Shown here one piece after another: positions 12,601 through 31,848 of a stretch of 64,000 nucleotides of DNA (its first letter is position 1; each line of letters begins with the position of its first letter). The stretch comes from Candidatus Parepulonipiscium sp. PG-Nuni2H_MBin01 (GTDB lineage Bacteria; Bacillota; Clostridia; Lachnospirales; Cellulosilyticaceae), in the NCBI GenBank assembly GCA_001994995.1, contig MDJM01000084.1, positions 171 to 64,170 of the forward strand. The letters are read 5' to 3'. The translations under genes were made by a program, and so were the position numbers. The notes beneath the pieces were generated by a model. That model did not search any database and was not told where the DNA came from. It saw nothing but the letters and a program-made list of their open reading frames with translations.

Positions 12601-12619
12601 ATAGAAAGGACAATTGACC

Positions 12620-13723
12620 ATGAGGCAAAATGAAAATAACGATGTATTGGATTTTTTTACAGAGATGTCCGACTATCAAGTTTCCGCTAAAGAGTTTTTT
12701 ACTGATACTCTATTAAAACTTCTAGAAAAGCACTTTGAATTATCAAAAACTATAATATTTTACTTTGATACATGTGGAAATTTTTTATCTTGGAAAGACA
12801 AATATTCTATATTAGTAAATTCCAGGTCACACCCTTATCACAATTTTGTAGATACGGATATAGTTAGGCATATTATTTATCGCGATGCACTTAGGGATGG
12901 CCTTAGTTATTTCAATGTCATCCCTAGAATATATAAATCTACAGATATTATAAGTTCTATCGATTATAACAATTCAACATATGTAAGGTTTTTACATGAT
13001 GTAATAGATGCGCATTATAGCGTTACAATGGCATTTGGCATAAATGCGTATATTCAATTAAGTATTTATAAAACTTTAGAAGAAGGAGATTTTACAGAAG
13101 AAGAACTTAGGTTTTTAAATAATGTATATATTTATATTGCTAATTTTTATAAAAACTATAAAAAATATGAGCAGGCTAATATAGTCTCAGCGTTGCAAAG
13201 TAATATTATAACATTAGGGCATCAAGCTTACATTATTATAGATGATTTTCTCCATATTTTAGGATATAACCAAATTGCCTATTACTATCTAAAAGATGTT
13301 TTAGGTTGCTTTATCACATCTAAATTTAATCAAGATACTGCATATAAGTGGATTATACTTATATTTGATAACGCGCAAGAAATAGATGAAAATATTAGAA
13401 TAACGACTATTGGAGAATATAAATTTAAAATTCATAGCTATGATCAAATATATTCTAATGGCATTATAGATAAGTATTATTGGATTACTATTTCTAAGCT
13501 AGAATGTGTAGCAAAAGCTATTAGCATAAATACAAAAGACCTATTAACGCCTACTGAAAGAAAGGTTGCAGAGCTTATATACAAAGGCTTAACCTATAAA
13601 GACATTGCTGATGAGTTGGTAGTAAGTTATCATACGATTAAAAGACATATACAAAACATATATATTAAATGCGAAGTTAACAGCAGATTTGAGCTTTCTA
13701 AATGGCTAGAAAAAAATAGATAG
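12620..13723 (+). CDS. LuxR-family transcriptional regulator with an uncharacterised ~300 aa N-terminal domain
   Basis: C-terminal HTH: LTPTERKVAELIYKGLTYKDIADELVVSYHTIKRHIQNIYIKCEV. The ATG at 12620 is better spaced from GAAAGGA than the TTG at 12614. Confidence 0.8.
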   Translation: MRQNENNDVLDFFTEMSDYQVSAKEFFTDTLLKLLEKHFELSKTIIFYFDTCGNFLSWKDKYSILVNSRSHPYHNFVDTDIVRHIIYRDALRDGLSYFNVIPRIYKSTDIISSIDYNNSTYVRFLHDVIDAHYSVTMAFGINAYIQLSIYKTLEEGDFTEEELRFLNNVYIYIANFYKNYKKYEQANIVSALQSNIITLGHQAYIIIDDFLHILGYNQIAYYYLKDVLGCFITSKFNQDTAYKWIILIFDNAQEIDENIRITTIGEYKFKIHSYDQIYSNGIIDKYYWITISKLECVAKAISINTKDLLTPTERKVAELIYKGLTYKDIADELVVSYHTIKRHIQNIYIKCEVNSRFELSKWLEKNR

Positions 13724-14081: not shown

Positions 14082-15032
14082 TTGGAGCATAAAGGAGTTA
14101 TACTTAATATTCAGCATTTCACTATTCATGATGGTCCAGGTATTCGTACCGAATTATTTTTAAAAGGCTGCCCTATGCGGTGTAAATGGTGTAGCAACCC
14201 GGAGAGTTGGTTACACCATATAGAGCCTGGTGTTTATAGGTCAAAATGTATATTAGAAACTAAATGCGGTTCTTGTAAAGATATATGTCCTGATAAAGAT
14301 ATATTAAAATTTCATGATGGTAAAATAAGCTCTATAGATAGAACAAAATGTACTAATTGTCTTTTATGCAGCATGGAATGTCCTTCGGAAGCTATTAAAC
14401 AATGGGGCAAACAAATGTCAGTTGAACAGTGTATGAAAGAAATTTTAAAAGATAAAGGATATTACGACCGCTCTGGTGGAGGGGTTACAGTATCAGGTGG
14501 AGAGCCTCTTATGCAAAGTGAATTTGTATTAGAGCTTTTTAAGGCATGTAAAAAAGTTGGAATTCATACTTGCTGTGAGTCTAGCTTTTGTACTAACTGG
14601 GAAGCTATTGAAAAAATTTTACCTTATACTGACCTTATAATTTCGGACATTAAGCATATGGACACTAATGTGCATAAAGAATATACAGGAATTGATAACA
14701 AGAAAATTTTAGAAAACTTAAGTAAGTTATGTACTACTAATGTAGATTTAATTTTACGTATCCCTGTAATTCCTATGGTAAATGATACCCACGAAAATAT
14801 GGCGGCTACAGCAGATTATATTATAGATGAATTACATGGTAGGGTTAGAACACTACAGCTGTTGAGCTTTATGAGGCTAGGCGAGGAAAAATACCATTCG
14901 TTAGGATTACCATATCAAATGGAAAATACTAAAATAAATAGGACATCATTTCAGAAACGAATTAATGAATTTGCTGATTATTTTAATGGCCGGGGGATTA
15001 ACTGTTTAGTAGGTACGAAGGAAAAGGATTAG
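14082..15032 (+). CDS. Glycyl-radical enzyme activating enzyme (radical SAM, with two extra ferredoxin-type clusters)
   Basis: GPGIRTELFLKGCPMRCKWCSNPES (CX3CX2C). Also CILETKCGSCKDICP and CTNCLLCSMECP. TTG start after AAGGAGG. Confidence 0.9.
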   Translation: MEHKGVILNIQHFTIHDGPGIRTELFLKGCPMRCKWCSNPESWLHHIEPGVYRSKCILETKCGSCKDICPDKDILKFHDGKISSIDRTKCTNCLLCSMECPSEAIKQWGKQMSVEQCMKEILKDKGYYDRSGGGVTVSGGEPLMQSEFVLELFKACKKVGIHTCCESSFCTNWEAIEKILPYTDLIISDIKHMDTNVHKEYTGIDNKKILENLSKLCTTNVDLILRIPVIPMVNDTHENMAATADYIIDELHGRVRTLQLLSFMRLGEEKYHSLGLPYQMENTKINRTSFQKRINEFADYFNGRGINCLVGTKEKD

Positions 15033-15059
15033 ATTAATTTTTGCAAGGGAGGATTTTAA

Positions 15060-17549
15060 ATGAATAGTGATATAAAATGTGCAAGCGGAACACAACCTTT
15101 TGACCAAACCTATAGTTTAGGATACCAAGTAAATCATGAAGATTGGTCACCATTTCCACGTGTAAACCGCCTTAGGCAAGCTTTTTTAGATAGGCCATAT
15201 GAAGTAGATGTAGAAAGATTAAGGTTAGTTACAAATTCATATAAGAAACACGAGGATTTACCTCGTAAGTTACAGTGTGCATATGCATTTGAAAATGTTT
15301 TATTAAATGCAACTTTATATATTTACGACGAAGATTTAATTTTAGGCGAAATTGCAGCGCCAGCTAAAGCATCACCTATATATCCTGAGTTTTCAGTAAA
15401 ATGGATTATAGATGAAATACTGCACCACCCATTTGAAGAGCGTGCAAACGACCAGTTCTATATTCGTAGTGATGAAGATAGAAAAGAAATCGTAGAGCTT
15501 TGTAGGTATTGGGAAGGAAAGACTGTTGATGACCTTATTAGCGCTAGGTTAGAAGAGTCGCAAACGGTTGGCTCTCAGGTTGGAGATAAAGTGTTCCAAA
15601 CTAACGTTTATCAATATGCAGGAGTAGGCCATCTCGCTATGGATTATTTTATGCTAATGGACATTGGTTTTGATGGTATGATTGATAAAGCAAAAGTGGC
15701 GCAAAGTAAGCTATCTAAAAAAGACCCAGAATATGCAGAAAAAAGAGATTTTTATAAAGCAATGCTTATTATGTTAGAAGCATCTAAAAAGTATATAGAA
15801 CGTTATGGCAAGCTAGCAGCTGATATGGCACAGACAGAGCTTGCGCCTAAAAGAAAAGAAGAGCTGTTAGCAATGTCAGCTAACTGTTATGAGATTGCAG
15901 GTCCAGCGCCTAAAACTTTTTGGCAAGGTATACAATTGTTTAACTTTGCAACTACACTTACCCAGATAGAAAGTAATGGTCACTCAATTTCCTATGGGCG
16001 TATGGACCAATGGCTATACAGTCTTTATGAAGCGGACATTAAACAAAATACTTTAACAAAGGAATTTGCTCTTGAACTTCTTGAGGTGCAGTTTGTTAAA
16101 ATGAATAACCCTACTAAATTAAAAGATAAAGGGACTGTACTAGTGCGCAATGGTAGAGGTTTTGGTGGCGAAAGTCTTACTATTGGTGGGGTGGATAGCG
16201 AAGGGAATGATGTTACTAACGATTTAACAATGCTAATCTTAGAAGGTTCTGCGCATACTCGTATGATGAACCCTTGGGTATGTGTTCGTATGCATGAGAA
16301 TACACCTTATGAGTTAAAAGTTAAAGCAGTTGAGTGTATTCGTGCTGGATATGGGCATCCAAAATTATTTAATGATGAACCAGCTATTAAAGCTATGATG
16401 AGAAAAGGAATGCCTATTTGTGAAGCTAGAGATTATATTGTAGTAGGCTGTGTAGAACCAAGTTTAGCGGGTAAAGAATTTGGTTGGCATGATGCGGCAT
16501 ATGTTAATACTGCAAAAATGTTAGAAATGGTAGTAAACGGCGGTATGTGTTTAGATGGTGGGGTGTTTGGTAAGCAAATAGGGCCTAATACTGGTACTTT
16601 AGAAACTTACAAAAGTTTTGATGAGGTATTAGAGAGTGTAGATAAACAGTTTGATTATTGGTGTGACCAAATGTGCAGTAGCTTAAATATAATTGAGGAT
16701 GCACATAAACTGCGTAAACCAACCCCATATGTATCAGCATTTTTTCCTCATTGTATTGAAACTGGTAAAGATTTATCCGAGGGCGGTGCTAAGTATAATG
16801 GAACGGGGCCACAAGCTAGTGGGATAGCTACATGTGCAGATAGTTTAGCGACTATTAAGCAATTAGTATTTGATGAGAAACGTTATACAGGTGCTCAACT
16901 GCTTCAAGCTATTAAAGATAACTGGGAAGGACATGAGAAATTATATGCTTTAGTAAATAGCTCAAAAATCCATCACTATGGAAACGATGATGATTATGCA
17001 GATGAATTATTTAAATTTATGTTTGAGTGTTATTGTAAAAACATAAATTATCGCAAAAATTTAAGAGGCGGTAACTTTAGCCCCGGTGTATATTCGGTTA
17101 ATGCTAATGTAGGAATGGGCTTATTTACTAATGCCTCTTTAGATGGGCGTTTTAAAGCTGAAGCTATTTCAGATAATATGGGACCTGTACATACTGATGG
17201 CGGTTCCCATGATATTTGTGGCCCTACAGCCTTAGCTAATTCAGTAAGTAAGGTTGACCACAGTTTAGCAACTAACGGAACCTTATTAAATATGAGATTT
17301 CCGCAAGAAGCAGTTGCTGGTACAGAAGGTAGAGATAACTTAATAAGTTTTATTGATGAATATATGTCAAAAGCACCTATGCACGTTCAGTTTAACATAA
17401 TGAACGTAGCTACTATGAAAGCGGCACAGAAAAATCCAGAAAATTATAAAGATATGTTGGTTAGAGTAGCTGGGTACAGCGCATACTTTGTGGAGCTTGG
17501 TAAGCCTTTACAAAAAGACCTAATACAACGTACAGAGCTTAATTTTTAA
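15060..17549 (+). CDS. Glycyl-radical enzyme, PFL2 / diol-dehydratase-like clade. The substrate is unresolved: DHPS or glycerol dehydratase are the candidates.
   Basis: 829 aa. C-terminal Gly-radical motif MLVRVAGYSAYF and Cys loop VVGCVEPS. GVGHLAMDY, NGHSISYGR and FGWHDAAY resemble my recollection of dehydratase-type GRE active-site motifs. Confidence 0.88.
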   Translation: MNSDIKCASGTQPFDQTYSLGYQVNHEDWSPFPRVNRLRQAFLDRPYEVDVERLRLVTNSYKKHEDLPRKLQCAYAFENVLLNATLYIYDEDLILGEIAAPAKASPIYPEFSVKWIIDEILHHPFEERANDQFYIRSDEDRKEIVELCRYWEGKTVDDLISARLEESQTVGSQVGDKVFQTNVYQYAGVGHLAMDYFMLMDIGFDGMIDKAKVAQSKLSKKDPEYAEKRDFYKAMLIMLEASKKYIERYGKLAADMAQTELAPKRKEELLAMSANCYEIAGPAPKTFWQGIQLFNFATTLTQIESNGHSISYGRMDQWLYSLYEADIKQNTLTKEFALELLEVQFVKMNNPTKLKDKGTVLVRNGRGFGGESLTIGGVDSEGNDVTNDLTMLILEGSAHTRMMNPWVCVRMHENTPYELKVKAVECIRAGYGHPKLFNDEPAIKAMMRKGMPICEARDYIVVGCVEPSLAGKEFGWHDAAYVNTAKMLEMVVNGGMCLDGGVFGKQIGPNTGTLETYKSFDEVLESVDKQFDYWCDQMCSSLNIIEDAHKLRKPTPYVSAFFPHCIETGKDLSEGGAKYNGTGPQASGIATCADSLATIKQLVFDEKRYTGAQLLQAIKDNWEGHEKLYALVNSSKIHHYGNDDDYADELFKFMFECYCKNINYRKNLRGGNFSPGVYSVNANVGMGLFTNASLDGRFKAEAISDNMGPVHTDGGSHDICGPTALANSVSKVDHSLATNGTLLNMRFPQEAVAGTEGRDNLISFIDEYMSKAPMHVQFNIMNVATMKAAQKNPENYKDMLVRVAGYSAYFVELGKPLQKDLIQRTELNF

Positions 17550-17559
17550 TAACTTTTAC

Positions 17560-17720
17560 TCTCCTCATAAGCGGTTATGCCTAAGAGGGGAGCCTTAGAT
17601 TTATATGGGGTACAGGGGCAATGCCCCTGACTGTGTCCCTTCAAAAACATCGGCCGCCTTAGTATTTATTGCTATAAAAGGTTGATTGAAAAGTTTTCAT
17701 TTGTTAAGTTAACAAGACCA
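17560..17720 (+). repeat. Intergenic repeat family, copy A (full length)
   Basis: Hairpin CAGGGGCAATGCCCCTG (17613-17629). The core CTTAGTATTTAT...AAAAGGTTGATTGAAAAGTTTTCATTTGTTAAGTTAACAAGACC ends about 25 nt before the RBS of the Fe-ADH gene. It is near-identical to the cores at 45928-45987 and 62124-62178. Confidence 0.75.
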
Positions 17721-17745
17721 GACTTTATTATAGGAGGAATATATA

Positions 17746-18888
17746 ATGAAAGATTTTAGATTTAAAATACCACAAAATATTGAATTTGGCTTAGGAAGTT
17801 TAAATAAACTACCACAATTATTAGAACAAAATAATTCACAACATGTACTGCTTATATCGGATAAAGGGTTAGAAAGTATTGGGATAGTTAAAAAAGTACA
17901 AGATATAATAAGCGCTAGTAATATTCAATGCACCACATTTTTGGACATAGACCCAAATCCAACTATTGAAATGGTCGACGCGGCAGCAAGTTTATATAAA
18001 GAATGCGGTGCTACAAGTATAGTTGCTCTTGGAGGCGGAAGCCCTATCGACGTTGCAAAAGCAGTGGGAGTACTTGTTGTTTATGGAGGTAAAATTACAG
18101 ATTATGAGGGTATGCACAAAGTGCCTGGACCAATTGTACCTATGATAGTAATTCCAACTACAGCTGGGACAGGTAGTGAAGCTACAGCTTCAGCAGTAAT
18201 AACAGATGTAACAAGAAATTATAAGATGACTGTATTTACTTATGAAATTTTACCTAAATACGCAATACTAGACCCAGAGCTTATTATGACTGCACCAGCA
18301 TCAATTGCGGCGGCGTGTGGTGTAGATGCATTTATTCATGCGATGGAAGCTTATTTATCTCGAAATGCATCCCCATTTTCAGATGCTATGGCTGAAAAAG
18401 GGATGGAATTAATCGGCAAAAGTTTAAGGCAGTTTGTGGCTGATAGAACAAACGTTGAAGCGGCGTGTAATATGATGGCAGGTTCTAATTTTGCCGGAAT
18501 TTCATTTGCTTGGGCAAGGCTTGGAAATATACATGCTATGAGTCATCCTGTAAGCGCTTATTTCCATGTGCCACATGGTATTGCTAATGCTATACTTATG
18601 CCTACAATAGTTGAGTACAACGCACTGGCTGATGATGGTAGATATGAGAAAATTTATAACTATATAAGTAAAGAGTCTGTTAGCAATTTTAAACCACAAA
18701 TGCTAGTAGAGGCGTTAAGACAGCTAAATGAAGAACTTGGTATTCCTAATTCATTATCAGCAGTAGGCGTAACCGAGGATTTAATCGAAACAATGGCCAA
18801 TGATGCTATGGCTAGCGGAAATATCCTTGCTAATCCAAGACAGGGTAATGTTAAAAATCTTATAGAGCTTTACAAAAAAGCCTTATAA
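17746..18888 (+). CDS. Iron-containing (group III) alcohol dehydrogenase, DhaT/FucO-like aldehyde reductase
   Basis: GGGSPIDVAKA and the His-rich metal site HAMSHPVSAYFHVPHG. 380 aa. RBS AGGAGG. Confidence 0.9.
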   Translation: MKDFRFKIPQNIEFGLGSLNKLPQLLEQNNSQHVLLISDKGLESIGIVKKVQDIISASNIQCTTFLDIDPNPTIEMVDAAASLYKECGATSIVALGGGSPIDVAKAVGVLVVYGGKITDYEGMHKVPGPIVPMIVIPTTAGTGSEATASAVITDVTRNYKMTVFTYEILPKYAILDPELIMTAPASIAAACGVDAFIHAMEAYLSRNASPFSDAMAEKGMELIGKSLRQFVADRTNVEAACNMMAGSNFAGISFAWARLGNIHAMSHPVSAYFHVPHGIANAILMPTIVEYNALADDGRYEKIYNYISKESVSNFKPQMLVEALRQLNEELGIPNSLSAVGVTEDLIETMANDAMASGNILANPRQGNVKNLIELYKKAL

Positions 18889-19085: not shown

Positions 19086-19133
19086 TAAAAAAACACTAAT
19101 ATTACTAAAATTTAGAAAATCTTACTAAAACAC

Positions 19134-19162: not shown

Positions 19163-19308
19163 AATATTAGATTTGTTGCTCAAATTTACTAATTAATATC
19201 TACTATATATTAAATAATACAACAAATTTTACAATTAAAATATCTTGCCCCACAAAAATATAAGGGGGAGATAGAGTTGCCATATTTGGCTAAGAAATGG
19301 AGGAATTT

Positions 19309-20334
19309 ATGAAAAAATTTATATCTATTCTTTTATTAGGTGCAATGTCACTATCTTTAGCAGCTTGTAGTACAGCAGATTCTGACTCAAGTTCATCATC
19401 ATCAAGTGGAACTATTAGAATTATTTGTCCATATGGTGTAGGCGGAACTGCTGACTTAATTGCAAGAAAATATGCATTAGTAGCTGGGAGTCTTTTTCCA
19501 GACAAAACATTTATAGTAGAGAATATGACTGGTGGAGATGGGTTCTCAGCTGCTACATATTACTCAGAGCTTAACCCTTCAACAACAGATTTATTAATTT
19601 ATGGCTTAGGAGTTGTGTATCGTCATGACTTAGGTACACTATATGGCACAGAAATAGTTGATTTTGATAGAAACGAAATTCTTCCTATAGGTGTTATTGA
19701 TGATAGAACGTGGATTTTATATGGTACACCAGGCACTACATTTGAGGAAGTTTTAGAACTAGCTCAAACAACAGGCGTTAAAATGTCAGGTGGAAATGCA
19801 TTATCTGACCCACATCTTGCTCTTGGTTCTCTAATGGCATTAGAAGATGGTAAAGTTATCGTTATTCCATATGATGGTGGGGCATCACAAAAGAAAGCTC
19901 TAACAGATGGTGAAGTTAACGTATTCGTAGGTACAACACAAGCAGCTCAGGAAGAAGTTGAAGCAGGCACCCTAGTTCCAATTTTATCATTTAGCGAAGA
20001 ACCATTTGAAGGATTTATTGGCCCAGATGGAAATCCTATTGAAGTACCATCCGTAGGTGGTGCATATAAACACACTGCATTAAACCCAGGTATAGACCAT
20101 ACAGTAGCGATTTTACCATCGGGAGGATTTATTGCAACTCGTGTGGGCGCGTCTGAGGAATGGATTGCTGAAATGGAAGAGGTTACAAAAGCTGTTTGGG
20201 CTTCTGATGAATACAGTGATTGGATTGAAGGAATTATGTTAAATAAAACAGAAGCGTATGGTTTAGATGCTGTACAATATTTAGAGGAGGCATCTGAGGT
20301 TGCTATTAATGCATTTGAGATTTTAAGTCAATGA
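19309..20334 (+). CDS. tctC: Tripartite tricarboxylate transporter (TTT) substrate-binding lipoprotein, TctC/Bug family
   Basis: MKKFISILLLGAMSLSLAAC lipobox and a Ser-rich linker. The ATG at 19309 lies 5 nt after GGAGG. Confidence 0.8.
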   Translation: MKKFISILLLGAMSLSLAACSTADSDSSSSSSSGTIRIICPYGVGGTADLIARKYALVAGSLFPDKTFIVENMTGGDGFSAATYYSELNPSTTDLLIYGLGVVYRHDLGTLYGTEIVDFDRNEILPIGVIDDRTWILYGTPGTTFEEVLELAQTTGVKMSGGNALSDPHLALGSLMALEDGKVIVIPYDGGASQKKALTDGEVNVFVGTTQAAQEEVEAGTLVPILSFSEEPFEGFIGPDGNPIEVPSVGGAYKHTALNPGIDHTVAILPSGGFIATRVGASEEWIAEMEEVTKAVWASDEYSDWIEGIMLNKTEAYGLDAVQYLEEASEVAINAFEILSQ

Positions 20335-20375
20335 TAATGATAGTTTCGTTATTATGATTAAAGGAGGGGTGTATA

Positions 20376-22530: not shown

Positions 22531-23211
22531 ATGAAATATTTTTTAGATAGTGCAAAAATAGAAGAGATTAAAGAAGCATATGAAACATTCGGAATTGATG
22601 GGGTAACAACAAATCCGCGCCACATTATGTTAAGTGGAAAACCATTTTTACAAGTTATCCAAGAGATTGCTGATTGGGCGAAAGCTGAGGGGTTAGAAGG
22701 ATATGAAAAATTCCCTATTTCTGTAGAAATTAATCCACATTTAGATGATACACAAGCAATGGTTGATGAAGGAAGAAAAATTGCTGCTATGAGTAAAAAC
22801 TTTGTTATTAAAATCCCATCAACAGAGGCAGGAGTAGCTGCAGCTAAACGCCTTGAAAAAGAAGGGGTTAGAACTAATGTAACTCTTGTATTTTCTCCAG
22901 CCCAAGCAATTATTCCTGGAAAAATTAACGCTTTATTCGTTTCACCATTTATTGGGTGGAAAGAAGCAAATGGCGAAGACTGCAAAAAATATATTGAAGA
23001 TATAGCTAAAATATATGACAACTATGGGTTTAAGACAGAGATTATTTGTGCTGCAATTAGAACGCCAAAACAATTTGTGGATTGTGCGCTTGCTGGGGCA
23101 GATATTATTACTACTGGTTTAGATGTCTATAAAGACTCTATTAAACATGCGTATACAACTCAAGGTTTAGGAGTATTTACTGACGCTTGGGATCAAACAA
23201 TAACTGAATAA
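22531..23211 (+). CDS. Short (TalC/FSA-type) transaldolase, a candidate 6-deoxy-6-sulfofructose transaldolase
   Basis: MKYFLDSAKIEEIKE..GVTTNP, Schiff-base Lys in FVIKIPST, and TNVTLVFS. It has SPFIGW where canonical enzymes have SPFVGR. Confidence 0.8.
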   Translation: MKYFLDSAKIEEIKEAYETFGIDGVTTNPRHIMLSGKPFLQVIQEIADWAKAEGLEGYEKFPISVEINPHLDDTQAMVDEGRKIAAMSKNFVIKIPSTEAGVAAAKRLEKEGVRTNVTLVFSPAQAIIPGKINALFVSPFIGWKEANGEDCKKYIEDIAKIYDNYGFKTEIICAAIRTPKQFVDCALAGADIITTGLDVYKDSIKHAYTTQGLGVFTDAWDQTITE

Positions 23212-23274: not shown

Positions 23275-24132
23275 ATGAAAATAGGATTTATTGGACTTGG
23301 TATTATGGGTGAGTCTATGAGTGAAAATATAGTAACTAAACACAATGATGAGGTTTACGTATTTGATTTTGCAAAAGACAAAGTAGACCTTTTAGCATCT
23401 AAAGGAGCAATCGCTTGTACTTCATCAGGGGAGCTTGCGCAAAAAAGTGATGTAATAATATCAATGGTGCCAAAGTCTGAGCATGTAAAGGCAGTATATG
23501 AAGGCATTTTAGATAAATTAGATAATACAAAAATTTGTATTGACATGAGTACTATTGACCCTAGTGTATCTAGAGAAGTGGCGAGCAAAGTTAAGGAAAC
23601 AGGCGCGCAATTTATTGATGCACCAGTTGTAAAATCCAAACCAGCTGCAATTTCTGGAACACTTGGCATTTATGTTGGCGGTGATGAAAGTGTATATGAA
23701 AAAATGAAACCTATCCTTTTGTATATGGGAAATAACGTTATTCGCATGGGGGATAATGGTGCAGGGCTAGTTATGAAAATTTGTCATAATGCATTAGTGT
23801 CTCAAATCCAAAATGGCGTAAATGAAACTATAAGTTTAGCTGTTGCAAATGGAATTAGCATTGAGGAATATACTAAAGCTATATCTTATGGCGGAGGACA
23901 GAACTTCTATCTAGATGGGAAGTCAAAGCCAATTTCAGAAAACAACTTTACTACAGCGTTCTCAGTTGAAAATATGGCAAAAGACGTGGACATTTGCATT
24001 AGTTTAGCAAAAGAGTGCGGTATTAGCATGCCAGGGGAAGAAGTTGTTCAGAATGTATATAATAAATCTCTTGAAAATGGATATGGCTCTCTTGATTTCT
24101 GCGCTACAATAAAAACTGTGCGAGGAGAGTAG
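23275..24132 (+). CDS. NAD(P)-dependent beta-hydroxyacid dehydrogenase family reductase (YihU/GarR-like), a candidate sulfolactaldehyde reductase
   Basis: MKIGFIGLGIMGESM Rossmann motif, DMSTI, and GTLGIYVGG. 285 aa. Confidence 0.8.
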   Translation: MKIGFIGLGIMGESMSENIVTKHNDEVYVFDFAKDKVDLLASKGAIACTSSGELAQKSDVIISMVPKSEHVKAVYEGILDKLDNTKICIDMSTIDPSVSREVASKVKETGAQFIDAPVVKSKPAAISGTLGIYVGGDESVYEKMKPILLYMGNNVIRMGDNGAGLVMKICHNALVSQIQNGVNETISLAVANGISIEEYTKAISYGGGQNFYLDGKSKPISENNFTTAFSVENMAKDVDICISLAKECGISMPGEEVVQNVYNKSLENGYGSLDFCATIKTVRGE

Positions 24133-24135: not shown

Positions 24136-24798
24136 ATGATAGAACATTTAAATACAATAAATAATGTGGAAATAAAAAGTGTTTTTGATAAGAGCTTTAA
24201 AACTTATGGCAAAGTGATAGAAGGATATGATTTTACAGAAATAGTGGAATATATGAAAACAACGCCTATGCCAGAAGCTAATAATATTTATATAGCATCT
24301 TGTGAAGATATGGAAAATATGGAAGTGGCACATAAAGTGCAACAAGGGTTATATGGAGGCTTGGAAATACAGGTTGGTTACTGTAACGGAAGAAATAGCA
24401 CTTATAATGGATTAGAGTATCACAAATGTAGTGAGCTTAATGTAGCTGTTACTGATATGATGATGGTATTAGGGCATGTTTGGGATATGGAAAATAATAC
24501 TTTTAATGTAGATGATGTGGAAGTATTTTTTGTTCCTCAAGGTACTGTATTAGAAATGTACCAAACAACACTTCACCTATCACCTTGCAAAGTAACAGAT
24601 GAAGGATTTAGAGCTGTAGTTATTTTGCTTAAAGGCACAAATGATACTACGTTTGAGAAACCAGAACATATCACAAAAGAAGATGAAATTTTATTATTTA
24701 AAAACAAATGGATAATTGCTCATCCACAAAGAGAACCTTTGGTAAAAGCAGGCGCTTACACCGGGCTAATCGGAGAGAATAAACAATTAAAATATTAA
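24136..24798 (+). CDS. DUF4867-like cupin protein, a candidate sulfoquinovose isomerase
   Basis: 220 aa with GYCNGRNSTYNGLEYHKCSELNVAVTD. As I recall, this family is the isomerase of sulfo-TAL clusters. The assignment is from memory and context. Confidence 0.6.
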   Translation: MIEHLNTINNVEIKSVFDKSFKTYGKVIEGYDFTEIVEYMKTTPMPEANNIYIASCEDMENMEVAHKVQQGLYGGLEIQVGYCNGRNSTYNGLEYHKCSELNVAVTDMMMVLGHVWDMENNTFNVDDVEVFFVPQGTVLEMYQTTLHLSPCKVTDEGFRAVVILLKGTNDTTFEKPEHITKEDEILLFKNKWIIAHPQREPLVKAGAYTGLIGENKQLKY

Positions 24799-24820
24799 AT
24801 CCTAGAAAGGCGGCTAGTTG

Positions 24821-26830
24821 ATGGAGTTACAAATAAATAACAATGAATTTAAGTTAGAACATAATGGCCATGTTATCTTAAGTCACTCGGCTTCTCAACC
24901 TTTACTTTATGTTGGAGTGGGGGATGAAGATGTAGAGATGTATCGAGGGAATTTTAAAATTGAAGACTATTTAATTGAGCGAATAAAACTAGATGTGTTA
25001 TCAATCCAAGAAACAGATGGTGCTACTGCTATTAACTTTGGTGATAAAGTTATAGCTACGATTAAAATAGTTTCGGATAAATGTGATATTAGTTTTGAGC
25101 ACAAGGATTCAGATTTAAATAGATTTTTTATTAGGCTAAACTCAAGTGAAAACGAAAAATGTTTTGGACTTGGAGAACAAATGTCTTATTTAAACGTTAA
25201 AGGCAGAAACTTTCCTATATTCACCTCAGAGCCTGGTGTAGGGCGAGATAAATCTACCTACATGACATGGAAATGCGATGTGGACTCAAAATCTGGAGGA
25301 GACTACTACAATTCAAACTTCCCACAGCCCACATTTATATCTTCAAACATGTATTTCCTTCATTTAAACTCCACTGCCTATGCAGACTTTAACTTTAAAA
25401 ACGATAATTTTACCGAAGTAGAGGTTTGGGAAATCCCAGAAAGTATAGTTATAGAAGGTGGCAAAGATTATTTCGAGCTACTAGAAAAATTAACTGCTTT
25501 ATTAGGACGACAACCAGAGTTGCCAGATTGGGTTTACAATGGACTAATTGTAGGACTGCAAGGTGGTAATGAAAGAACGTTTGGTTTATTAGATAAAACG
25601 CTTGATAAAGGAATTAAAGTTGCTGCAGTGTGGGCACAGGATTGGTGTGGAAAACGATTTACTTCTTTTGGAAAAAGACTCCAATGGGATTGGCATTTCC
25701 ACAATGAAATGTACCCTAATTTACCTGAAAAAATCGCACAACTACATGAAAGAGGCATTAAGTTTATGGGGTATGTAAATCCATATCTTGTAGATGATGG
25801 TGATTTATATAAAGAAGGTAAACAGAAAGGTTTCTTTGCAACTAAACATGATGGCACTGATTACCTTGTGGATTTTGGTGAATTTAACTGCGGAGTTGTA
25901 GATTTAACAAATCCACAAGCTTATGAATGGTTTAAAAACGATGTTATAAAGAAACATTCAATTGACATAGGTATGGATGGCTGGATGGCTGATTTTGGTG
26001 AGTATCTCCCAACTGATGACATTAAACTTTACAGCGGTAAAAGTGCTATGATAGAACACAATCACTGGCCAGTTTTATGGGCTAAATGTAATTATGATGC
26101 TGTTAATGAGTCTGGCAAATTAGGTGAAATAGTTTACTTTATGCGTGCTGGCGGTGCTGGAAGTCAAAAGTATTGCACATTACTTTGGGCAGGAGACCAA
26201 TCAGTTGATTTTACGTTGCATGACGGCCTTGCTTCAACTATTTGTGGAGCATTATCAGCTGGTATGACTGGTGTTGGATTATCTCATAGTGATATAGGGG
26301 GTTATACATCTCTTTATGAGAATGTTCGTGATAAAGAGCTATTTCTACGTTGGGCTGAAATGTCGGCGTTTACTCCAGTTATGAGGACTCATGAAGGTAA
26401 TAGACCAGATACAAACTTCCAATACTATGACGATGATGATTGTATGACTCAATTAGCGCGATTAGTTGATGTATACACAATGCTAAAAGAATATATTAAA
26501 GAATTAGTGGCACATAATAGTCAAAAGGGTATTCCTGTACAAAGACCATTATTCCTGCATTATCCAACAGATGAAAAAACTTACGAAATCCAATATCAGT
26601 ATTTATTCGGTAGTGATATACTTGTTGCGCCTGTGCATGAGGAAGCGAAAACACAGTGGGAAGTATATTTGCCAGATGATGAATGGATACACTTATGGAC
26701 TGGTAAAGAATTTGGGCAAGGAACTTATGTTATAGATGCTCCAATGGGATACCCACCAGTATTTTATAGGAAGACTTCTGCTTATGCAGCTACATTTGCA
26801 GAAGTGACTAATAAATACGGAAGTAAATAG
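24821..26830 (+). CDS. yihQ: GH31 sulfoquinovosidase (YihQ/SftG-like)
   Basis: Long stretches match E. coli YihQ as I recall it: LLEKLTALLGRQPELPDW, AQDWCGKRFTSFGKRLQWDW (Arg/Trp of the sulfonate pocket), GWMADFGEYLP (nucleophile), WAGDQSVDF (acid/base) and HSDIGGYTS (Tyr). Confidence 0.88.
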   Translation: MELQINNNEFKLEHNGHVILSHSASQPLLYVGVGDEDVEMYRGNFKIEDYLIERIKLDVLSIQETDGATAINFGDKVIATIKIVSDKCDISFEHKDSDLNRFFIRLNSSENEKCFGLGEQMSYLNVKGRNFPIFTSEPGVGRDKSTYMTWKCDVDSKSGGDYYNSNFPQPTFISSNMYFLHLNSTAYADFNFKNDNFTEVEVWEIPESIVIEGGKDYFELLEKLTALLGRQPELPDWVYNGLIVGLQGGNERTFGLLDKTLDKGIKVAAVWAQDWCGKRFTSFGKRLQWDWHFHNEMYPNLPEKIAQLHERGIKFMGYVNPYLVDDGDLYKEGKQKGFFATKHDGTDYLVDFGEFNCGVVDLTNPQAYEWFKNDVIKKHSIDIGMDGWMADFGEYLPTDDIKLYSGKSAMIEHNHWPVLWAKCNYDAVNESGKLGEIVYFMRAGGAGSQKYCTLLWAGDQSVDFTLHDGLASTICGALSAGMTGVGLSHSDIGGYTSLYENVRDKELFLRWAEMSAFTPVMRTHEGNRPDTNFQYYDDDDCMTQLARLVDVYTMLKEYIKELVAHNSQKGIPVQRPLFLHYPTDEKTYEIQYQYLFGSDILVAPVHEEAKTQWEVYLPDDEWIHLWTGKEFGQGTYVIDAPMGYPPVFYRKTSAYAATFAEVTNKYGSK

Positions 26831-27550
26831 ATGAATATAATTTTATTTTTTATAGTTATCTTTTTAAGTAACATAATACAAGGCATTACAGGCTTTGCGG
26901 GAACAATTCTCGCAATGCCATTTGCTATAATGTTAGTAGGCTATAATGTAGGTAAGCCTGTATTAAATCTACTAGGTTTATTTGCTGGCCTATATGTACT
27001 TAAAAGTAACTATAAATCTGTTAACGTAAAAGAACTTATTAAAATCGTTGTGGTGATGTCGCTTGGTATATTTGGTGGGATTTATCTTAAAGCGTTGTTA
27101 GTGGATCACCAACAAGTTCTTTATATAGCGCTAGGCCTTTTTATAATATATATATCAGTCAAAGGCTTATTCTTTAAATCTAAGGAGCGTAAAACGTTAA
27201 ACCCTGTAATGACCAATGCTATGTTAATAGTAGCAGGTATAATACATGGTATATTTGTATCCGGGGGACCGCTTGTAATTAGTTATCTAACAACAAAGAT
27301 AAATGATAAAACTGCATTTAGAGCTACAATATCTACAGTGTGGGTATTTTTGAATACAATTCTTTTTGTAGATGACATCATAAGTGGCTATTGGACCCAA
27401 GAATTAGTTATTCTGCAAATAATAGGTATGCCAATACTATTTTTAGGAATGCATATAGGGTCTATATTGTATAAAAAAATGAATCAAGAAACGTTTATGA
27501 AGCTGTCGTATATATTATTATTTATTGCGGCACTTACATTAATTTTCTAA
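26831..27550 (+). CDS. TauE/SafE (TSUP, DUF81) family sulfite/organosulfonate exporter
   Basis: 239 aa, about 8 TM. N-terminus reads NIIQGITGFAGTILAMPF. The ATG abuts the yihQ stop codon. Confidence 0.8.
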   Translation: MNIILFFIVIFLSNIIQGITGFAGTILAMPFAIMLVGYNVGKPVLNLLGLFAGLYVLKSNYKSVNVKELIKIVVVMSLGIFGGIYLKALLVDHQQVLYIALGLFIIYISVKGLFFKSKERKTLNPVMTNAMLIVAGIIHGIFVSGGPLVISYLTTKINDKTAFRATISTVWVFLNTILFVDDIISGYWTQELVILQIIGMPILFLGMHIGSILYKKMNQETFMKLSYILLFIAALTLIF

Positions 27551-27570: not shown

Positions 27571-28908
27571 ATGAAACAATTTCAAGTAGCGTACATTCCT
27601 ATTGGAGTACCAACTTTTCATTTAGAAAGTGCACAAATTGAGTTCGATAAATCTATATCTATGATAAAAGGGTTAACTGATAATGGGGTATTTCCAGACG
27701 AAATGCTTTTATCAATGGATAAATTAGATAACTTTTTAAACTCTATAGAGCCAAATTTAGTTATAGTTCAAAATATTACATTTGCAAACTCAGCTTATAT
27801 AACAGAGGTACTAAAGAAATTTGATTGCCCAGTACTGCTGTGGACATTAAGAGAGCCGATTATAGATGGAGGTAGGCTAAGGTTAAATTCTTTAACAGGA
27901 GCATATTCTGCTGGAAATACACTTATGCATTTTAGAAATGCAAACTTTGAGTATGTATTTGGTTCTCCTGATGAAGAAGATGTAACTTCTCATATTAAAG
28001 CTACTATTGAAGCGGCTAGAGTAAAACATGTGATGAGAGGGATAAAAGTTGCAGCTATAGGCCACACTCCACAAGGGTTTGGATTTGGTAGAGCTTTAGA
28101 TATTGAGATGGCTCAAGTTTTTGGAGCAACTCTAGAGTCTTTAGAAGCGAGGGAGTTAATCGAAAAGGCTAAAGCGTATGAAACGGATGTTACAGACGAG
28201 TTGTTAGAACAGTATGGTAAAGTTGCTTGTAACCATGATGTTATAGATGAGAAAAACATGGTTGACTTTGCTAGATTATTAAAAGCGTATAAAGATTTTG
28301 TAGATGCAAATAATATTAAAGTTATTGCATCTAGATGTTGGCCTGACTTCTTCGTATCATATGGTACTCCTGTTTGTGGCGTACTATCATTACTAAACGA
28401 TTGGGGTGTATCTGCTAGTTGTGAAGCTGATACCTACGGCGCATTATCTATGTATATAGCATCACAATTTACACATAAGGCATCTTTCTTTGGTGACCCA
28501 GTGTCTTTAGATGAAGAAGAGAATACTATTACTTATTGGCACTGTGGTATGGCCGCATGTTCTCTTTCTAGAGATGAAAAGGCAAATACGGGTGTGCATC
28601 CAAATAGAAAAATAGGCCCAGTAATGGACTTTGGTTGTAAAGCGGATGAGCAAGCGACTGTCTTTAGAATTGGTAAAGATGCAGATGGTAAATTTAGATT
28701 TTTCATTATGGAAGGTAGTATTTTAGATAAACCAAAACAGTTCCAAGGCACATCTATTGTTGTTAAACCAAACGGAAACTGTAAAGACATTATAACTAAG
28801 AGTGTAAAATCAGGTTTTGAGCCACACTTTGTTGTAGCATATGGCCACATTGCCAAAGAGCTTGAAATTCTTGCTAATATGTTAGACTTAGAAGTTGTAA
28901 AATACTAA
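27571..28908 (+). CDS. L-fucose/L-arabinose isomerase-family protein; substrate unknown
   Basis: 445 aa with AAIGHTPQGFGFG and CEADTYGALSM motifs typical of FucI/AraA-like sugar isomerases. RBS GGAGA. Confidence 0.65.
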   Translation: MKQFQVAYIPIGVPTFHLESAQIEFDKSISMIKGLTDNGVFPDEMLLSMDKLDNFLNSIEPNLVIVQNITFANSAYITEVLKKFDCPVLLWTLREPIIDGGRLRLNSLTGAYSAGNTLMHFRNANFEYVFGSPDEEDVTSHIKATIEAARVKHVMRGIKVAAIGHTPQGFGFGRALDIEMAQVFGATLESLEARELIEKAKAYETDVTDELLEQYGKVACNHDVIDEKNMVDFARLLKAYKDFVDANNIKVIASRCWPDFFVSYGTPVCGVLSLLNDWGVSASCEADTYGALSMYIASQFTHKASFFGDPVSLDEEENTITYWHCGMAACSLSRDEKANTGVHPNRKIGPVMDFGCKADEQATVFRIGKDADGKFRFFIMEGSILDKPKQFQGTSIVVKPNGNCKDIITKSVKSGFEPHFVVAYGHIAKELEILANMLDLEVVKY

Positions 28909-28966: not shown

Positions 28967-30091
28967 ATGAGAAAAGCGTTTATTTGCCCAACTAAATATG
29001 TTCAGGGAGAAGATGAGTTACTGAATTTAGGATATTTTGTTAAAACTTTCGGAACATCAGCACTATTAATAGCACATAAAGATGACGTTAACAGAGTAAA
29101 AGAAAAATTAGACTCAACAGCACAAAAATTTCAAATTACTTTTGCAGAATCAAACTTTGGTGGAGAATGTTCTAGAAATGAAATCGCAAGATTACAGCAA
29201 GTAGCAAAAGATAATAGTTGCGATTGTATCATCGGATTAGGCGGTGGTAAAGCAATAGATACAGCAAAATGTGTTGCTGAAGGTGGTAACTTAATTATTG
29301 TGCCAACAATTGCTGCAACAGATGCTCCAACTAGCCATTCAGCTGTACTATACACAGATGATGGAGCGTTTGATGACTACGCATATTTTAGACAAAGCCC
29401 TAGTGTAGTTTTAATTGATACAACAGTAATTGCAAATGCACCAACTAGATTTTTAGTATCTGGAATGGGTGATGCTTTATCAACTTATTTTGAAGCTCGT
29501 GCATCTAGAAATTCTTTTGCTAGAGTTAATGCATCATTACCTTGTGGAGCACTAACAGGCGAATGTCCACCGGCTGTAGGAACAAATACTGCGTTTGCAT
29601 TAGCGAAACTATGCTATGAAACTCTTTTAGCAGAAGGAGTAAAAGCTAAAATTGCTAATGAGTGTAAACAAGTAACACAATCTTTGGAAAACATAATAGA
29701 GGCAAATAGCTTACTTTCAGGGCTTGGATTTGAAAGCGGTGGTCTTGCAGGAGCACATGCAATTCATGACGGCTTAACTATAATTGAAGAAACTCATAAA
29801 TTTTTCCATGGCGAAAAAGTAGCTTTCGGAACAATCTGTCAGTTAGTTCTTGAAAATTCACCTACAGCAGAGCTAGAAGAAGTAATTAATTTCTGCATTA
29901 GCGTTGGGTTACCAGTTTGTCTTGAAGACTTAGGGATTAAAGAACTTTCTAATGAGCAACTTATGGCAGTAGCTGAAAAAGCATGTATTCCAGAAGAGAG
30001 TATCCATGCTATGCCATTTAAAGTTACACCAGCAGATGTTGCAGCGGCTATTATTACAGCGGATAGAATTGGTAGTTTAATGAAAAATTAG
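28967..30091 (+). CDS. gldA: Glycerol dehydrogenase
   Basis: GLGGGKAIDTAK, GMGDALSTYFEA and AGAHAIHDGLT motifs of GldA-type group III dehydrogenases. Confidence 0.85.
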   Translation: MRKAFICPTKYVQGEDELLNLGYFVKTFGTSALLIAHKDDVNRVKEKLDSTAQKFQITFAESNFGGECSRNEIARLQQVAKDNSCDCIIGLGGGKAIDTAKCVAEGGNLIIVPTIAATDAPTSHSAVLYTDDGAFDDYAYFRQSPSVVLIDTTVIANAPTRFLVSGMGDALSTYFEARASRNSFARVNASLPCGALTGECPPAVGTNTAFALAKLCYETLLAEGVKAKIANECKQVTQSLENIIEANSLLSGLGFESGGLAGAHAIHDGLTIIEETHKFFHGEKVAFGTICQLVLENSPTAELEEVINFCISVGLPVCLEDLGIKELSNEQLMAVAEKACIPEESIHAMPFKVTPADVAAAIITADRIGSLMKN

Positions 30092-30102
30092 TGGAGGCTA
30101 GC

Positions 30103-31848
30103 ATGAAAAAAATAATAAATCAACCAGAAACTATGATAGTTGAAATGTGCAACGGTTTAGTGATGGCACACCCAGAGCTTGAGTTTTTACCTAAATTTAA
30201 AGTGATAAAAAAATCTAATATTAACAAAGATAAAGTTTCATTAATAAGCGGTGGAGGTAGCGGACATGAACCGGCACATGCAGGATTTGTAGGCGAAGGT
30301 ATGCTTGATGCTGCAGTATGTGGAGATGTATTTGCATCGCCATCTCAAATTCAAGTTTATGAAGCAATTAAGGCAGCGGCAACAGATAAAGGGGTTTTAT
30401 TAATCATCAAAAACTATAGTGGTGATATAATGAACTTTAAAAATGCCGCTCACCTAGCTACTGAAGATGGCATAAATGTGGAATATATTAAAGTTGAAGA
30501 TGATATCGCTGTTATGGATAGCTTGTATACAGTAGGTAGACGTGGTGTTGCTGGTACAATTTACGTGCATAAAATTGCGGGTGCAGCAGCACAAAAGGGC
30601 TGGGAGTTGCAAAAAGTAAAAGAAATTGCACAAGATACAGCGGATAACGTAAGAAGTATGGGCTTTGCATTCACTTCATGTACCGTGCCAGCAAAAGGAA
30701 CTCCAACATTTGAGCTAGCAGATGATGAGATGGAATTTGGTGTGGGTATACATGGCGAACCTGGAATTGAGCGTCAGAAAGTAGTTGGTGCGGATGAGCT
30801 GGCTATAAAATTAGTGGAGCCAATTGTTAAAGACTTAGACTTAATTAACAACAAGCAAGAAATTGCGTTACTAATTAATGGCTTTGGTGCTACTCCACTG
30901 CAAGAGCTATATGTGCTTAACAATGCTGTTAGAAAATATTTATCACAATATAATATAGTACCAGTGGTTACACACGTAGGGAACTATATGACTAGCATTG
31001 ATATGGCAGGGGCTTCTATTTCTATATTAAGATTATGCGATACTAAAAAAGAACTGCTGTTAGCGCCATCAGATACACCTGGGTTTAAGGTGGGAGCGTA
31101 CGTTCCTCCTATCGCTTACCAAGAAGTAATTCAGCCAGAAACTAAGGAGCATGCTAACTATACAGTAGAGACTGACGCAAGCTATGCGGTTATAAAAGAT
31201 AATATCACTTTAAATAACTTAGTATATATAATTGATAAAATGGCTGAAGTAATCATTGCCAATGAAGTTCCATTCTGCGACTTGGATTCGCACGCTGGAG
31301 ACGGCGACTTTGGTATGAGCGTAGCAAAAGGGTTTAGACAACTAAAAGCTGAGTGGAACGAAGTTTTAGACACTACAATTGGTGGGTTTTTAAACAACTG
31401 CGCTATGATTATTATGGAACATTGCGGTGGAGCATCGGGACCAATTTGGGGTTCTGCATTTAGAGCTGCATCTAGATATGCACAAGATAAAACAACGTTA
31501 ACAGCTGCAGAGTTTGCACAATTGCTACAAGCTACTGTGGAAGGCATTCAAGCTACAGGAGAGCGCAGCTTTGGTAGGGGCGCTGGTGTAGGCGATAAAA
31601 CTTTAATGGATGCACTTATCCCAACAGCGAACGTTTGGCAAGAAAAAGCTAGCACTACTAGTTTTAAAGAACTATTCGAGTTAGGTGCACAAGCTGCTGT
31701 GGACGGAGCTAAGAAAACCGAAGAGATTGTTGCTAGAATGGGTAGAGCAGGCACAGTTGGAGAAAGAAGTATTGGTTATCCAGATGCAGGAGCACATGCA
31801 CTTGGAGTAATTTTTACAGAAATAACAAACAACTTAAAATTTGAATAA
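30103..31848 (+). CDS. ATP-dependent dihydroxyacetone kinase, fused DhaK-DhaL domains
   Basis: SGGGSGHEPAHAGFVG (DhaK) and DSHAGDGDFG (DhaL). The ATG at 30103 follows GTGGAGG. Confidence 0.9.
   Translation: MKKIINQPETMIVEMCNGLVMAHPELEFLPKFKVIKKSNINKDKVSLISGGGSGHEPAHAGFVGEGMLDAAVCGDVFASPSQIQVYEAIKAAATDKGVLLIIKNYSGDIMNFKNAAHLATEDGINVEYIKVEDDIAVMDSLYTVGRRGVAGTIYVHKIAGAAAQKGWELQKVKEIAQDTADNVRSMGFAFTSCTVPAKGTPTFELADDEMEFGVGIHGEPGIERQKVVGADELAIKLVEPIVKDLDLINNKQEIALLINGFGATPLQELYVLNNAVRKYLSQYNIVPVVTHVGNYMTSIDMAGASISILRLCDTKKELLLAPSDTPGFKVGAYVPPIAYQEVIQPETKEHANYTVETDASYAVIKDNITLNNLVYIIDKMAEVIIANEVPFCDLDSHAGDGDFGMSVAKGFRQLKAEWNEVLDTTIGGFLNNCAMIIMEHCGGASGPIWGSAFRAASRYAQDKTTLTAAEFAQLLQATVEGIQATGERSFGRGAGVGDKTLMDALIPTANVWQEKASTTSFKELFELGAQAAVDGAKKTEEIVARMGRAGTVGERSIGYPDAGAHALGVIFTEITNNLKFE

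Follow-up and report, generated by a model that had tools for sequence, protein, structure and literature searches.

The primary paper on HpfG, the glycyl-radical dehydratase of (2S)-2,3-dihydroxypropane-1-sulfonate (DHPS), is reportedly that of Liu et al. in PNAS in 2020, and the transaldolase (sulfo-TAL) pathway of sulfoquinovose (SQ) degradation is said to have been studied by Frommeyer et al. in 2020, Liu et al. in BBRC in 2020 and Snow et al. in 2023. HpfG and its partner HpfH were identified in Klebsiella oxytoca (PMC12890257), and characterisation of the reductase HpfD is on record for Hungatella hathewayi and Enterococcus gilvus (Chen et al., 2024, PMC11489063). Sulfoglycolysis extended by HpfG to 3-hydroxypropanesulfonate (3-HPS) has also been described (PMC9594981; Chen et al., 2024, PMC11489063), and pathways to 3-HPS have been stated for 'marine Vibrio and Epulopiscium sp.' (PMC11489063). 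Here, a 64 kb stretch (the window) of a contig of Epulopiscium sp. Nuni2H_MBin001 was analysed, in which three co-directional open reading frames (ORFs) occupy the region 14082-18888. We give a probability of about 0.93 to the reading that they encode HpfH, HpfG and HpfD and head an extended sulfo-TAL cluster; family membership, orthology and synteny are observed here, while we infer the substrates and fluxes. The three genes and the motifs of the central one are as follows.

14082..15032, + strand: predicted HpfH, radical S-adenosylmethionine (SAM) activating enzyme of DHPS dehydratase (316 aa; NF048008, 559.8 bits against a cutoff of 500)
15060..17549, + strand: predicted HpfG, glycyl-radical DHPS dehydratase (829 aa; NF048009 equivalog and orthology)
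15621-15647, + strand: GVGHLAMDY, aa 188-196 of HpfG
15975-16001, + strand: NGHSISYGR, aa 306-314 of HpfG
16446-16463, + strand: GCVEPS, the Cys loop, aa 463-468 of HpfG, with Cys464 and Glu466
16479-16502, + strand: FGWHDAAY, aa 474-481 of HpfG
17463-17489, + strand: RVAGYSAYF, the glycyl-radical motif, aa 802-810 of HpfG, with Gly805
17746..18888, + strand: predicted HpfD, NADH-dependent 3-sulfopropionaldehyde (3-SPA) reductase of the iron-type alcohol dehydrogenase (Fe-ADH) family (380 aa; orthology and synteny)

Judged by its sequence, the fold class of the glycyl-radical enzyme (GRE) is unambiguous, and all five motif segments picked out in an initial annotation of this DNA were found in the 829-aa ORF. 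That annotation had hesitated between DHPS, glycerol and a possible new specificity as the business of the enzyme. On the NCBIfam equivalog model of HpfG (NF048009, cutoff 1000) the protein scores 1672.6 bits, with residues 8-829 matched and the whole profile covered, which makes it a member of a known family and gives no support to a new specificity. All specific models of other GREs failed, namely HypD (540.3 bits against 1100), CutC (507.5 against 1050), HpsG (NF048011, 471.7 against 1000), indoleacetate decarboxylase (367 against 1100) and PFL (TIGR01255, 115.7 against 994); the score on the HPAD model was likewise far below cutoff, and the broad subfamily model TIGR01774 was barely passed (682.9 against 678.2). 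A grouping with PFL, HypD or CutC, which the initial annotation had named as a result that would speak against its reading, was not seen.

For comparison, a scan with one genome per species gave 230 relatives, and 80 loci from it were retained; their gene content was determined by tblastn of the window proteins, with a neighbour distance limit of 10 kb. HpfG identity over these 80 genomes ranges from 71 to 87%. It is highest for Epulopiscium sp. Nele67-Bin005 (87%) and Candidatus Epulonipiscium viviparus (85%), and stands at 78% for Klebsiella and Citrobacter (including K. spallanzanii) and at 75% for H. hathewayi DSM 13479. Searching a large protein collection with HpfG returned more than 1000 matches, with Epulopiscium at the top and then a tight band at 75-80% that spans Clostridia, Enterococcus, Fusobacteria and Enterobacteriaceae and in which many proteins are named '(2S)-3-sulfopropanediol dehydratase'. 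The exact window sequence is deposited as GenBank OOB77227.1 under the label 'formate acetyltransferase'. By its predicted family the GRE is an HpfG orthologue with DHPS, over glycerol, as its predicted substrate, and it is neither a glycerol dehydratase nor a new enzyme. The core of the initial annotation, in which water would be eliminated from a 1,2-diol with a polar substituent at C3, is in line with this assignment.

The candidate activating enzyme HpfH has the radical-SAM motif CX3CX2C at C30/C34/C37 and, as noticed initially, two extra ferredoxin-type four-Cys motifs (C56-X5-C62-X2-C65-X3-C69 and C90-X2-C93-X2-C96-X3-C100). Because its match to the hidden Markov model (HMM) begins only with residue 7, the TTG start at 14082 could be off by a few codons. 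The protein shares 65-69% identity with HpfH of Klebsiella and H. hathewayi, its gene ends 27 nt before the hpfG start, and HpfH is found within 10 kb of hpfG in 74 of the 80 loci. The Fe-ADH that the initial annotation had placed after the GRE gene begins 197 nt downstream of it and is deposited as OOB77228.1, 'alcohol dehydrogenase'. Its identity is 76% to the copy in H. hathewayi and 71% to that in Klebsiella, both neighbours of hpfG, and in 52/80 loci an Fe-ADH 60-85% identical to HpfD is located no more than 10 kb from hpfG. In the NCBIfam scan this protein passed no equivalog and matched no HpfD model; orthology and synteny together point to HpfD.

The HpfGHD modules of Klebsiella, H. 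hathewayi and E. gilvus resemble the window in the enzyme trio, the hpfH-hpfG order and a LuxR-type regulator upstream. They differ in that the window is without HpfE between hpfG and hpfD, and in that they stand alone, whereas in the window the module is joined to a complete SQ-catabolic cluster. H. hathewayi DSM 13479 (locus L020) and E. florum (L012) have the canonical order luxR-hpfH-hpfG-hpfE(TauE-like)-hpfD, and Klebsiella (L006) has the canonical hpf genes, but with hpfD upstream of luxR. In Epulopiscium sp. Nele67-Bin005 (L001, 121-7083) the order is hpfG-hpfE-hpfH-hpfD, with a gene for a 484-aa membrane protein before hpfD, and HpfH is only 56% identical to that of the window. The hpf module is thus rearranged even among close Epulopiscium relatives. 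A bifurcated pathway, with HpfXYZ (a CoA-acylating aldehyde dehydrogenase and an ADP-forming CoA ligase) as an oxidative branch, was also considered and rejected for this locus. Presumed HpfX/Y/Z-like ORFs of E. florum, used as queries, gave no tblastn match in the 64 kb window at E<=1e-3; with HpfX/HpfYZ missing, the pathway here would lack the bifurcation known from E. gilvus and E. florum.

Active-site residues were mapped to the B12-independent glycerol dehydratase (GD) of Clostridium butyricum (PDB 1R8W/1R9D), the closest solved structure at 613 bits, using a HMMER alignment that reproduces the literature numbering, and invariance was counted over 40 aligned HpfG sequences. In this alignment His191, His308/Ser309, Cys464, Glu466, Asp478, Tyr678 and Gly805 of HpfG pair with His164, His281/Ser282, Cys433, Glu435, Asp447, Tyr640 and Gly763 of GD, respectively. 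The two enzymes are therefore alike in fold class, in the radical relay (Gly763/Cys433 in GD), in the ligands His164, His281, Ser282, Glu435, Asp447 and Tyr640 and, presumably, in a direct 1,2-elimination mechanism, but the HpfG substrate would have a sulfonate where glycerol has its C3 hydroxyl. The initial annotation had named His, His/Ser and Asp as diol ligands at these positions, and they are indeed conserved; the alternative outcome, that a proper alignment would lack them, did not occur. It had also stated that propanediol dehydratases (PDs) lose the Ser, which is mistaken, as the Roseburia PD (5I2A) keeps 'SGHSIS' and 'WHD'. Since GxGH, (N/S)GHSIS and GWHD are common to GD, this PD, the 9RCO protein and 40/40 HpfG sequences, the GD-type His/Ser/Asp ligands do not tell glycerol from DHPS or propanediol.

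Other positions are characteristic of HpfG. Arg363, Arg366, Gly370, Glu371 and Val680 are invariant in 40/40 sequences and Tyr312 is present in 39/40, and the window protein has all of them. Arg363 and Arg366 sit in an RxGRGFGGE loop and differ from GD and PD; Gly370 replaces Tyr339 of GD and a Phe of PD, Glu371 replaces a Gln (Gln340 in GD), Tyr312 replaces a Pro (Pro285 in GD), and Ala187 is invariant or nearly so in the family, unlike in GD and PD. Val680 occupies the site of Ser642 in GD and Val696 in PD, and is thus Val as in PD. Structural papers on GD and PD reportedly place Tyr339 and Ser642 in the active site of GD. The Tyr-to-Gly change may open room for the sulfonate, with Arg363 and Arg366 as candidate ligands for it. 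In the C-S lyase IslA, the sulfonate ligands on beta1 are Arg189 and Gln193 (PMC8473560). At these two sites HpfG has Ala187 and His191, a correspondence drawn through the His site of HypD and GD that covers the beta1 ligands, so HpfG would not use the C-S lyase solution for sulfonate binding. In the comparison of sulfonate ligands proposed in the initial annotation, Arg and Gln of the IslA type are not at the beta1 sites, and the HpfG-invariant pair Arg363/Arg366 emerged as a candidate.

Furthermore, hpfHGD open a co-directional cluster of about 18 kb (14082-31848) with short gaps downstream, which may be a single operon. The downstream genes, all read from the same strand, are as follows.

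19297..20334, + strand: divergent TctC-like solute-binding protein of a tripartite tricarboxylate-type (TTT) transporter (weak Pfam TctC)
20376-20837, + strand: TctB (Pfam TctB, 50.3 bits)
20841-22430, + strand: TctA (Pfam TctA, 440.7 bits)
22531..23211, + strand: SqvA/SftT, predicted 6-deoxy-6-sulfofructose (SF) transaldolase (302 bits to the B. megaterium SF transaldolase 8BC3)
23275..24132, + strand: YihU/SftR-like candidate sulfolactaldehyde (SLA) reductase of the beta-hydroxyacid dehydrogenase family (context)
24136..24798, + strand: SqvB (DUF4867), proposed SQ ring-opening or mutarotase-like helper (Pfam DUF4867, 257 bits)
24818..26830, + strand: YihQ, predicted GH31 sulfoquinovosidase yielding SQ and glycerol from sulfoquinovosyl-glycerol (NF007746, PRK10426)
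26831..27550, + strand: TauE/SafE-family putative sulfonate exporter (Pfam TauE, 76 bits)
27571..28908, + strand: SqvD/SftI-like candidate sulfoquinovose isomerase with a fucose-isomerase-like fold (Pfam Fucose_iso_C)
28967..30091, + strand: GldA, NAD-dependent glycerol dehydrogenase (NF006941, 519.8 bits against a cutoff of 336)
30091..31848, + strand: fused DhaK-DhaL dihydroxyacetone kinase, Dak (NF011049, 717.7 against 492; Pfam Dak1 and Dak2)

Among these, YihQ reaches 981.8 bits on NF007746 (cutoff 553) and scores 798 bits to E. coli 5AED and 747 to A. tumefaciens 5OHS, the next GH31 family being YicI at 147. For the SF transaldolase, the first PDB chain outside the BmSF-TAL entries is 1VPX at 168 bits, and the protein is 73% identical to its orthologues in Brotaphodocola (L013) and Faecalibacterium (L063). 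The DUF4867 family is the SqvB of sulfo-TAL/TK/EMP2 clusters (PMC9594981). The YihU-like protein scores 109 bits to E. coli YihU (6SM7) and shares 69-70% identity with the equivalently placed gene in the SQ clusters of Brotaphodocola, Faecalibacterium and a further locus (L004), a context that suggests an SLA reductase. Similarly, the SqvD-like isomerase is 63-64% identical to its orthologues in L009 and in three Lachnospiraceae (L031-L033), and a Fucose_iso_C gene stands directly after hpfD in Ca. E. viviparus (L081, CP117982.1). The initial annotation had held that yihQ, an SLA reductase gene and tauE nearby favour DHPS; yihQ, an SLA-reductase-like gene and tauE do lie downstream on the same strand, and the HpfG equivalog match and orthology would settle the matter for DHPS.

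Comparable clusters are found in several relatives. The Brotaphodocola and Faecalibacterium loci have luxR/hpfHGD together with sqvA-yihU-sqvB-yihQ-tauE-tctCBA, and in Ca. E. viviparus the order is sqvA-yihU-sqvB-yihQ-tauE-hpfH-hpfG-hpfD-sqvD-ROK-tctCBA. The last of these shares SqvA, YihU-like, SqvB, YihQ, TauE, HpfH, HpfG, HpfD, SqvD-like and TctCBA proteins with the window, but there the sqv genes come first and hpf lies mid-cluster, a DeoR regulator and ROK are present in place of LuxR, and GlpK/GlpP/GlpD (19614-22475) are adjacent where the window has gldA and dak. With the sulfo-TAL systems of Bacillus megaterium/aryabhattai and gut Firmicutes the window has in common YihQ, SqvB, a candidate isomerase of the SftI/SqvD type, SF transaldolase and TauE; unlike them, it would extend the product by two steps, from DHPS through 3-SPA to 3-HPS.

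The glycerol genes at the end of the cluster bear on the choice of substrate. Genes for glycerol catabolism flank each of these SQ clusters, though by different routes, with GldA and Dak in the window, the Lachnospiraceae and Vibrio and GlpK/GlpP/GlpD in Ca. E. viviparus. In the three Lachnospiraceae loci yihQ-tauE-gldA-dak-sqvD lies immediately upstream of hpfHGD, and in three Vibrio/Pseudomonadota loci (L056, L071 and L077) yihQ-dak-gldA stands beside hpfG. GldA of the window is 75-78% identical to the gene beside yihQ and TauE in the former and 52% identical to that in the Vibrio loci, and Dak accompanies GldA in 6/6 related loci that have Dak. In Faecalicatena, GldA and Dak are SQ-induced and have been proposed to convert SQ-glycerol-derived glycerol to glyceraldehyde-3-phosphate (Borusak et al., PMC11659671). 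As gldA-dak recurs beside yihQ in SQ clusters, it is not the sign of a dha regulon, and the initial view that the pair fits such a regulon equally well is not upheld. The two genes most likely process the glycerol freed from sulfoquinovosyl-glycerol, and possibly supply the acceptor of the SF transaldolase.

An HpfG that acts mainly on DHPS could also turn over glycerol or 1,2-propanediol at physiological rates and so serve as a sink for SQ-glycerol-derived glycerol. Its diol-binding core is identical to those of GD and PD, Val680 matches Val696 of PD, and YihQ would make glycerol stoichiometrically in the same cell. However, the cluster already has a dedicated oxidative glycerol route in GldA and Dak, and the invariant Arg363/Arg366 with the Tyr-to-Gly change suggest a pocket for an anionic group; data on the substrate range of HpfG were not found in the literature searched. 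We consider this dual role improbable.

It is also very improbable that the genes encode a B12-independent glycerol dehydratase and a DhaT-like 1,3-propanediol dehydrogenase which, with gldA/dhaK, would form a clostridial-type dha regulon beside the SQ genes. Such a reading could draw on GD as the closest solved structure, on the conservation of all its diol ligands (His164, His281/Ser282, Glu435, Asp447 and Tyr640) and on gldA and dak in the same gene row, where YihQ would free glycerol in the cell. Yet PD and every HpfG sequence keep those ligands just as well, which makes them uninformative, while the 613 bits for GD compare with 1672.6 on the HpfG equivalog and with 71-87% identity to hpfG orthologues, and Tyr339 and Ser642 of GD are replaced by the HpfG-invariant Gly370 and Val680. 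Against solved structures, the Fe-ADH scores 231-235 bits to DhaT and is no closer to it than to FucO or methanol dehydrogenases, so the DhaT reading gains no specific support, and yet it is 71-76% identical to the hpfD neighbours of hpfG. Moreover, gldA-dak recurs with yihQ elsewhere, and Ca. E. viviparus has glpK/glpD in that place. A C-S-cleaving sulfonate lyase of the HpsG/IslA type that would release sulfite from DHPS or isethionate shares the sulfonate context and the GRE eliminase class, but its chance is negligible given the HpsG model score (471.7 against 1000), the 339 bits to HpsG 6LON and 322 bits to IslA 7KQ3, well behind GD, the residues Ala187/His191 at the IslA Arg189/Gln193 sites, and the annotated ORFs at 1-38605 of the window, among which neither a sulfite reductase nor another gene for handling sulfite turned up.

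Several points weigh against the assignment to HpfGHD and an extended sulfo-TAL cluster. HpfG has no experimentally solved structure that would define the sulfonate pocket (review PMC13450708), and the discriminator residues named above are sequence correlations only. The Klebsiella comparisons used Klebsiella sp. and K. spallanzanii (K. oxytoca complex) in place of the published K. oxytoca sequence. Within the cluster, the YihU-like protein falls below the cutoff for E. coli-type SLA reductases (PRK15461, 162 against 348) and the SqvD-like isomerase below that for SftI (NF048012, 387.4 against 700 bits), and the HpfE-type exporter of canonical hpf loci was not found in the window. In addition, Enterocloster clostridioformis YL32 has sulfo-TAL and hpfGHD and yet halted at DHPS in pure culture (PMC12330013), so gene presence is no guarantee of flux.

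On the preferred assignment, TctCBA would bring in the substrate and YihQ would split sulfoquinovosyl-glycerol into SQ and glycerol. SqvB and SqvD would convert SQ to sulfofructose, from which SqvA would transfer a C3 unit to glyceraldehyde-3-phosphate to give fructose-6-phosphate, leaving sulfolactaldehyde. GldA and Dak would take the glycerol through dihydroxyacetone to dihydroxyacetone phosphate and hence to glyceraldehyde-3-phosphate, the acceptor for the transaldolase. The YihU-like enzyme would then reduce sulfolactaldehyde to DHPS, and HpfGHD would act as a second NADH sink, making two NADH consumed per SQ. By family analogy (review PMC13450708), HpfH would install the glycyl radical on Gly805 of HpfG, and the radical would move from Gly805 to Cys464. 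The terminal carbinol carbon of (S)-DHPS may lose a hydrogen atom to the Cys464 thiyl radical, with Glu466 taking the proton of that hydroxyl and His191 protonating the departing C2-OH, and loss of water would yield 3-SPA. Finally, HpfD with NADH would reduce 3-SPA to 3-HPS, which would probably leave by TauE-type export.

The transporter genes of the cluster are of some interest in their own right. The TctC-like protein matches Pfam TctC at E=0.0018 and 18.3 bits, under the cutoff of 27; its orthologues (57-59% identity) precede TctB/TctA in Brotaphodocola and Faecalibacterium, and that of Ca. E. viviparus is weakly TctC. The TctCBA trio lies inside SQ/HpfG clusters of four unrelated Clostridia, these being the window, Brotaphodocola (19132-22345), Faecalibacterium (1-3208) and Ca. 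E. viviparus (16479-19533). It presumably imports the substrate of the cluster, with SQ, SQ-glycerol or DHPS as candidates. Where the window has a TTT system, the sugar transporter SqvU is listed for E. gilvus and an ATP-binding cassette (ABC) importer is predicted in Faecalicatena, and no paper linking sulfoquinovose with TctA or TctC was found in the literature searched. The TauE protein is a probable exporter of 3-HPS and/or DHPS. It is 49-56% identical to the yihQ-adjacent TauE of L004, Brotaphodocola, the three Lachnospiraceae and Faecalibacterium, but its identity to HpfE, the exporter in canonical hpf loci, is only 30-32%. HpfE stands between hpfG and hpfD in H. hathewayi (12550-13335) and E. 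florum (12495-13289) and is also present in Epulopiscium sp. Nele67-Bin005 (2596-3438). By this divergence the yihQ-linked TauE and HpfE are, as predicted families, two distinct exporter subfamilies.

Around the cluster, the following features were recorded.

11605-12600, + strand: Gfo/Idh/MocA oxidoreductase, ending 14 nt before the LuxR gene
12614..13723, + strand: LuxR-type protein, probable hpf regulator (C-terminal GerE helix-turn-helix at residues 310-362, Pfam)
13725-13742: terminator-like hairpin, 3' of the LuxR gene
13989-14017: promoter-like site, 5' of hpfH
31852-31878: GC-rich hairpin that closes the gene row after dak

The last ~55 residues of the LuxR-type protein give its only match, and the N-terminal ~300 aa are without any Pfam domain. 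In 43 of the 80 loci an orthologue (39-55% identity) immediately precedes hpfH-hpfG; these loci span Enterobacteriaceae, Enterococcus and Clostridia, including Klebsiella and H. hathewayi. The protein probably regulates in response to DHPS, with a sensor domain that has not been described before. Taken as a whole, the scan for promoters and terminators carried no information, with 85 promoter-like sites counted where 88.8 were expected. The longest gap inside the cluster, 409 nt of non-coding DNA between hpfD and the TctC-like gene (18889-19296), is without a convincing terminator and may hold an internal promoter or operator. A riboswitch or RNA leader was sought in the 360-nt and 409-nt gaps, where no Rfam family reached its gathering score, and no tRNA was found anywhere in the window.

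The Gfo/Idh/MocA gene was considered as an NAD-dependent sulfoquinovosidase and excluded from the system, as it has only a weak N-terminal Rossmann match to 8QC2/8QC3 (E ~1e-7), it matches generic Gfo/Idh/MocA proteins best and it is conserved in 0/80 loci. A microcompartment-associated GRE was likewise rejected; PduA and PduN as queries gave no tblastn match in the 64 kb at E<=10, in agreement with the initial remark that no shell genes lie nearby, and within the cluster all intergenic space is accounted for. Elsewhere in the window, positions 1-2000 have an unusual composition (GC 0.417 against ~0.33 elsewhere, AT skew +0.31), and the ORF at 160-1422 (+) encodes a low-complexity protein of 420 aa with weak extensin-like and HC2 histone-like matches and no NCBIfam family. 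Three ORFs at 7790-11470 (-), which may be a cell-envelope gene set, are without a family apart from three C-terminal S-layer-homology (SLH) domains in the product of 8967-9953. At 32871-35384 (+) there is an NAD-salvage module with a 3H-domain/HTH_11 regulator (NiaR-like), a PnuC nicotinamide riboside transporter and an NadR-type nicotinamide mononucleotide (NMN) adenylyltransferase.

HpfG, HpfH, HpfD, the type of cluster and even the host genus are already known, and a curated HMM names the protein. As HpfGHD have been characterised, the HMM is curated and extended sulfoglycolysis has been noted for Epulopiscium, the locus carries little weight for enzymology. Two points may be unreported, and we put this pair forward tentatively: TctCBA could be the first TTT importer for SQ or sulfoquinovosyl-glycerol as a sulfosugar, or for DHPS, and GldA with Dak could make the use of SQ-glycerol self-priming for the transaldolase. 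The TTT transporter, the LuxR-type regulator, the glycerol branch and the candidate sulfonate-pocket residues are side points of some worth. The main value lies in annotation and ecology, the names in the deposited metagenome-assembled genome being out of date and generic. Once the genes are correctly named, the surgeonfish symbionts would be seen to have the full set of steps that lead from algal sulfoquinovosyl-glycerol to 3-hydroxypropanesulfonate, a product that is not respirable by Bilophila (PMC11489063). If this is true, sulfur from dietary sulfolipid would be channelled into 3-HPS in surgeonfish that feed on algae, by their giant Epulopiscium symbionts.

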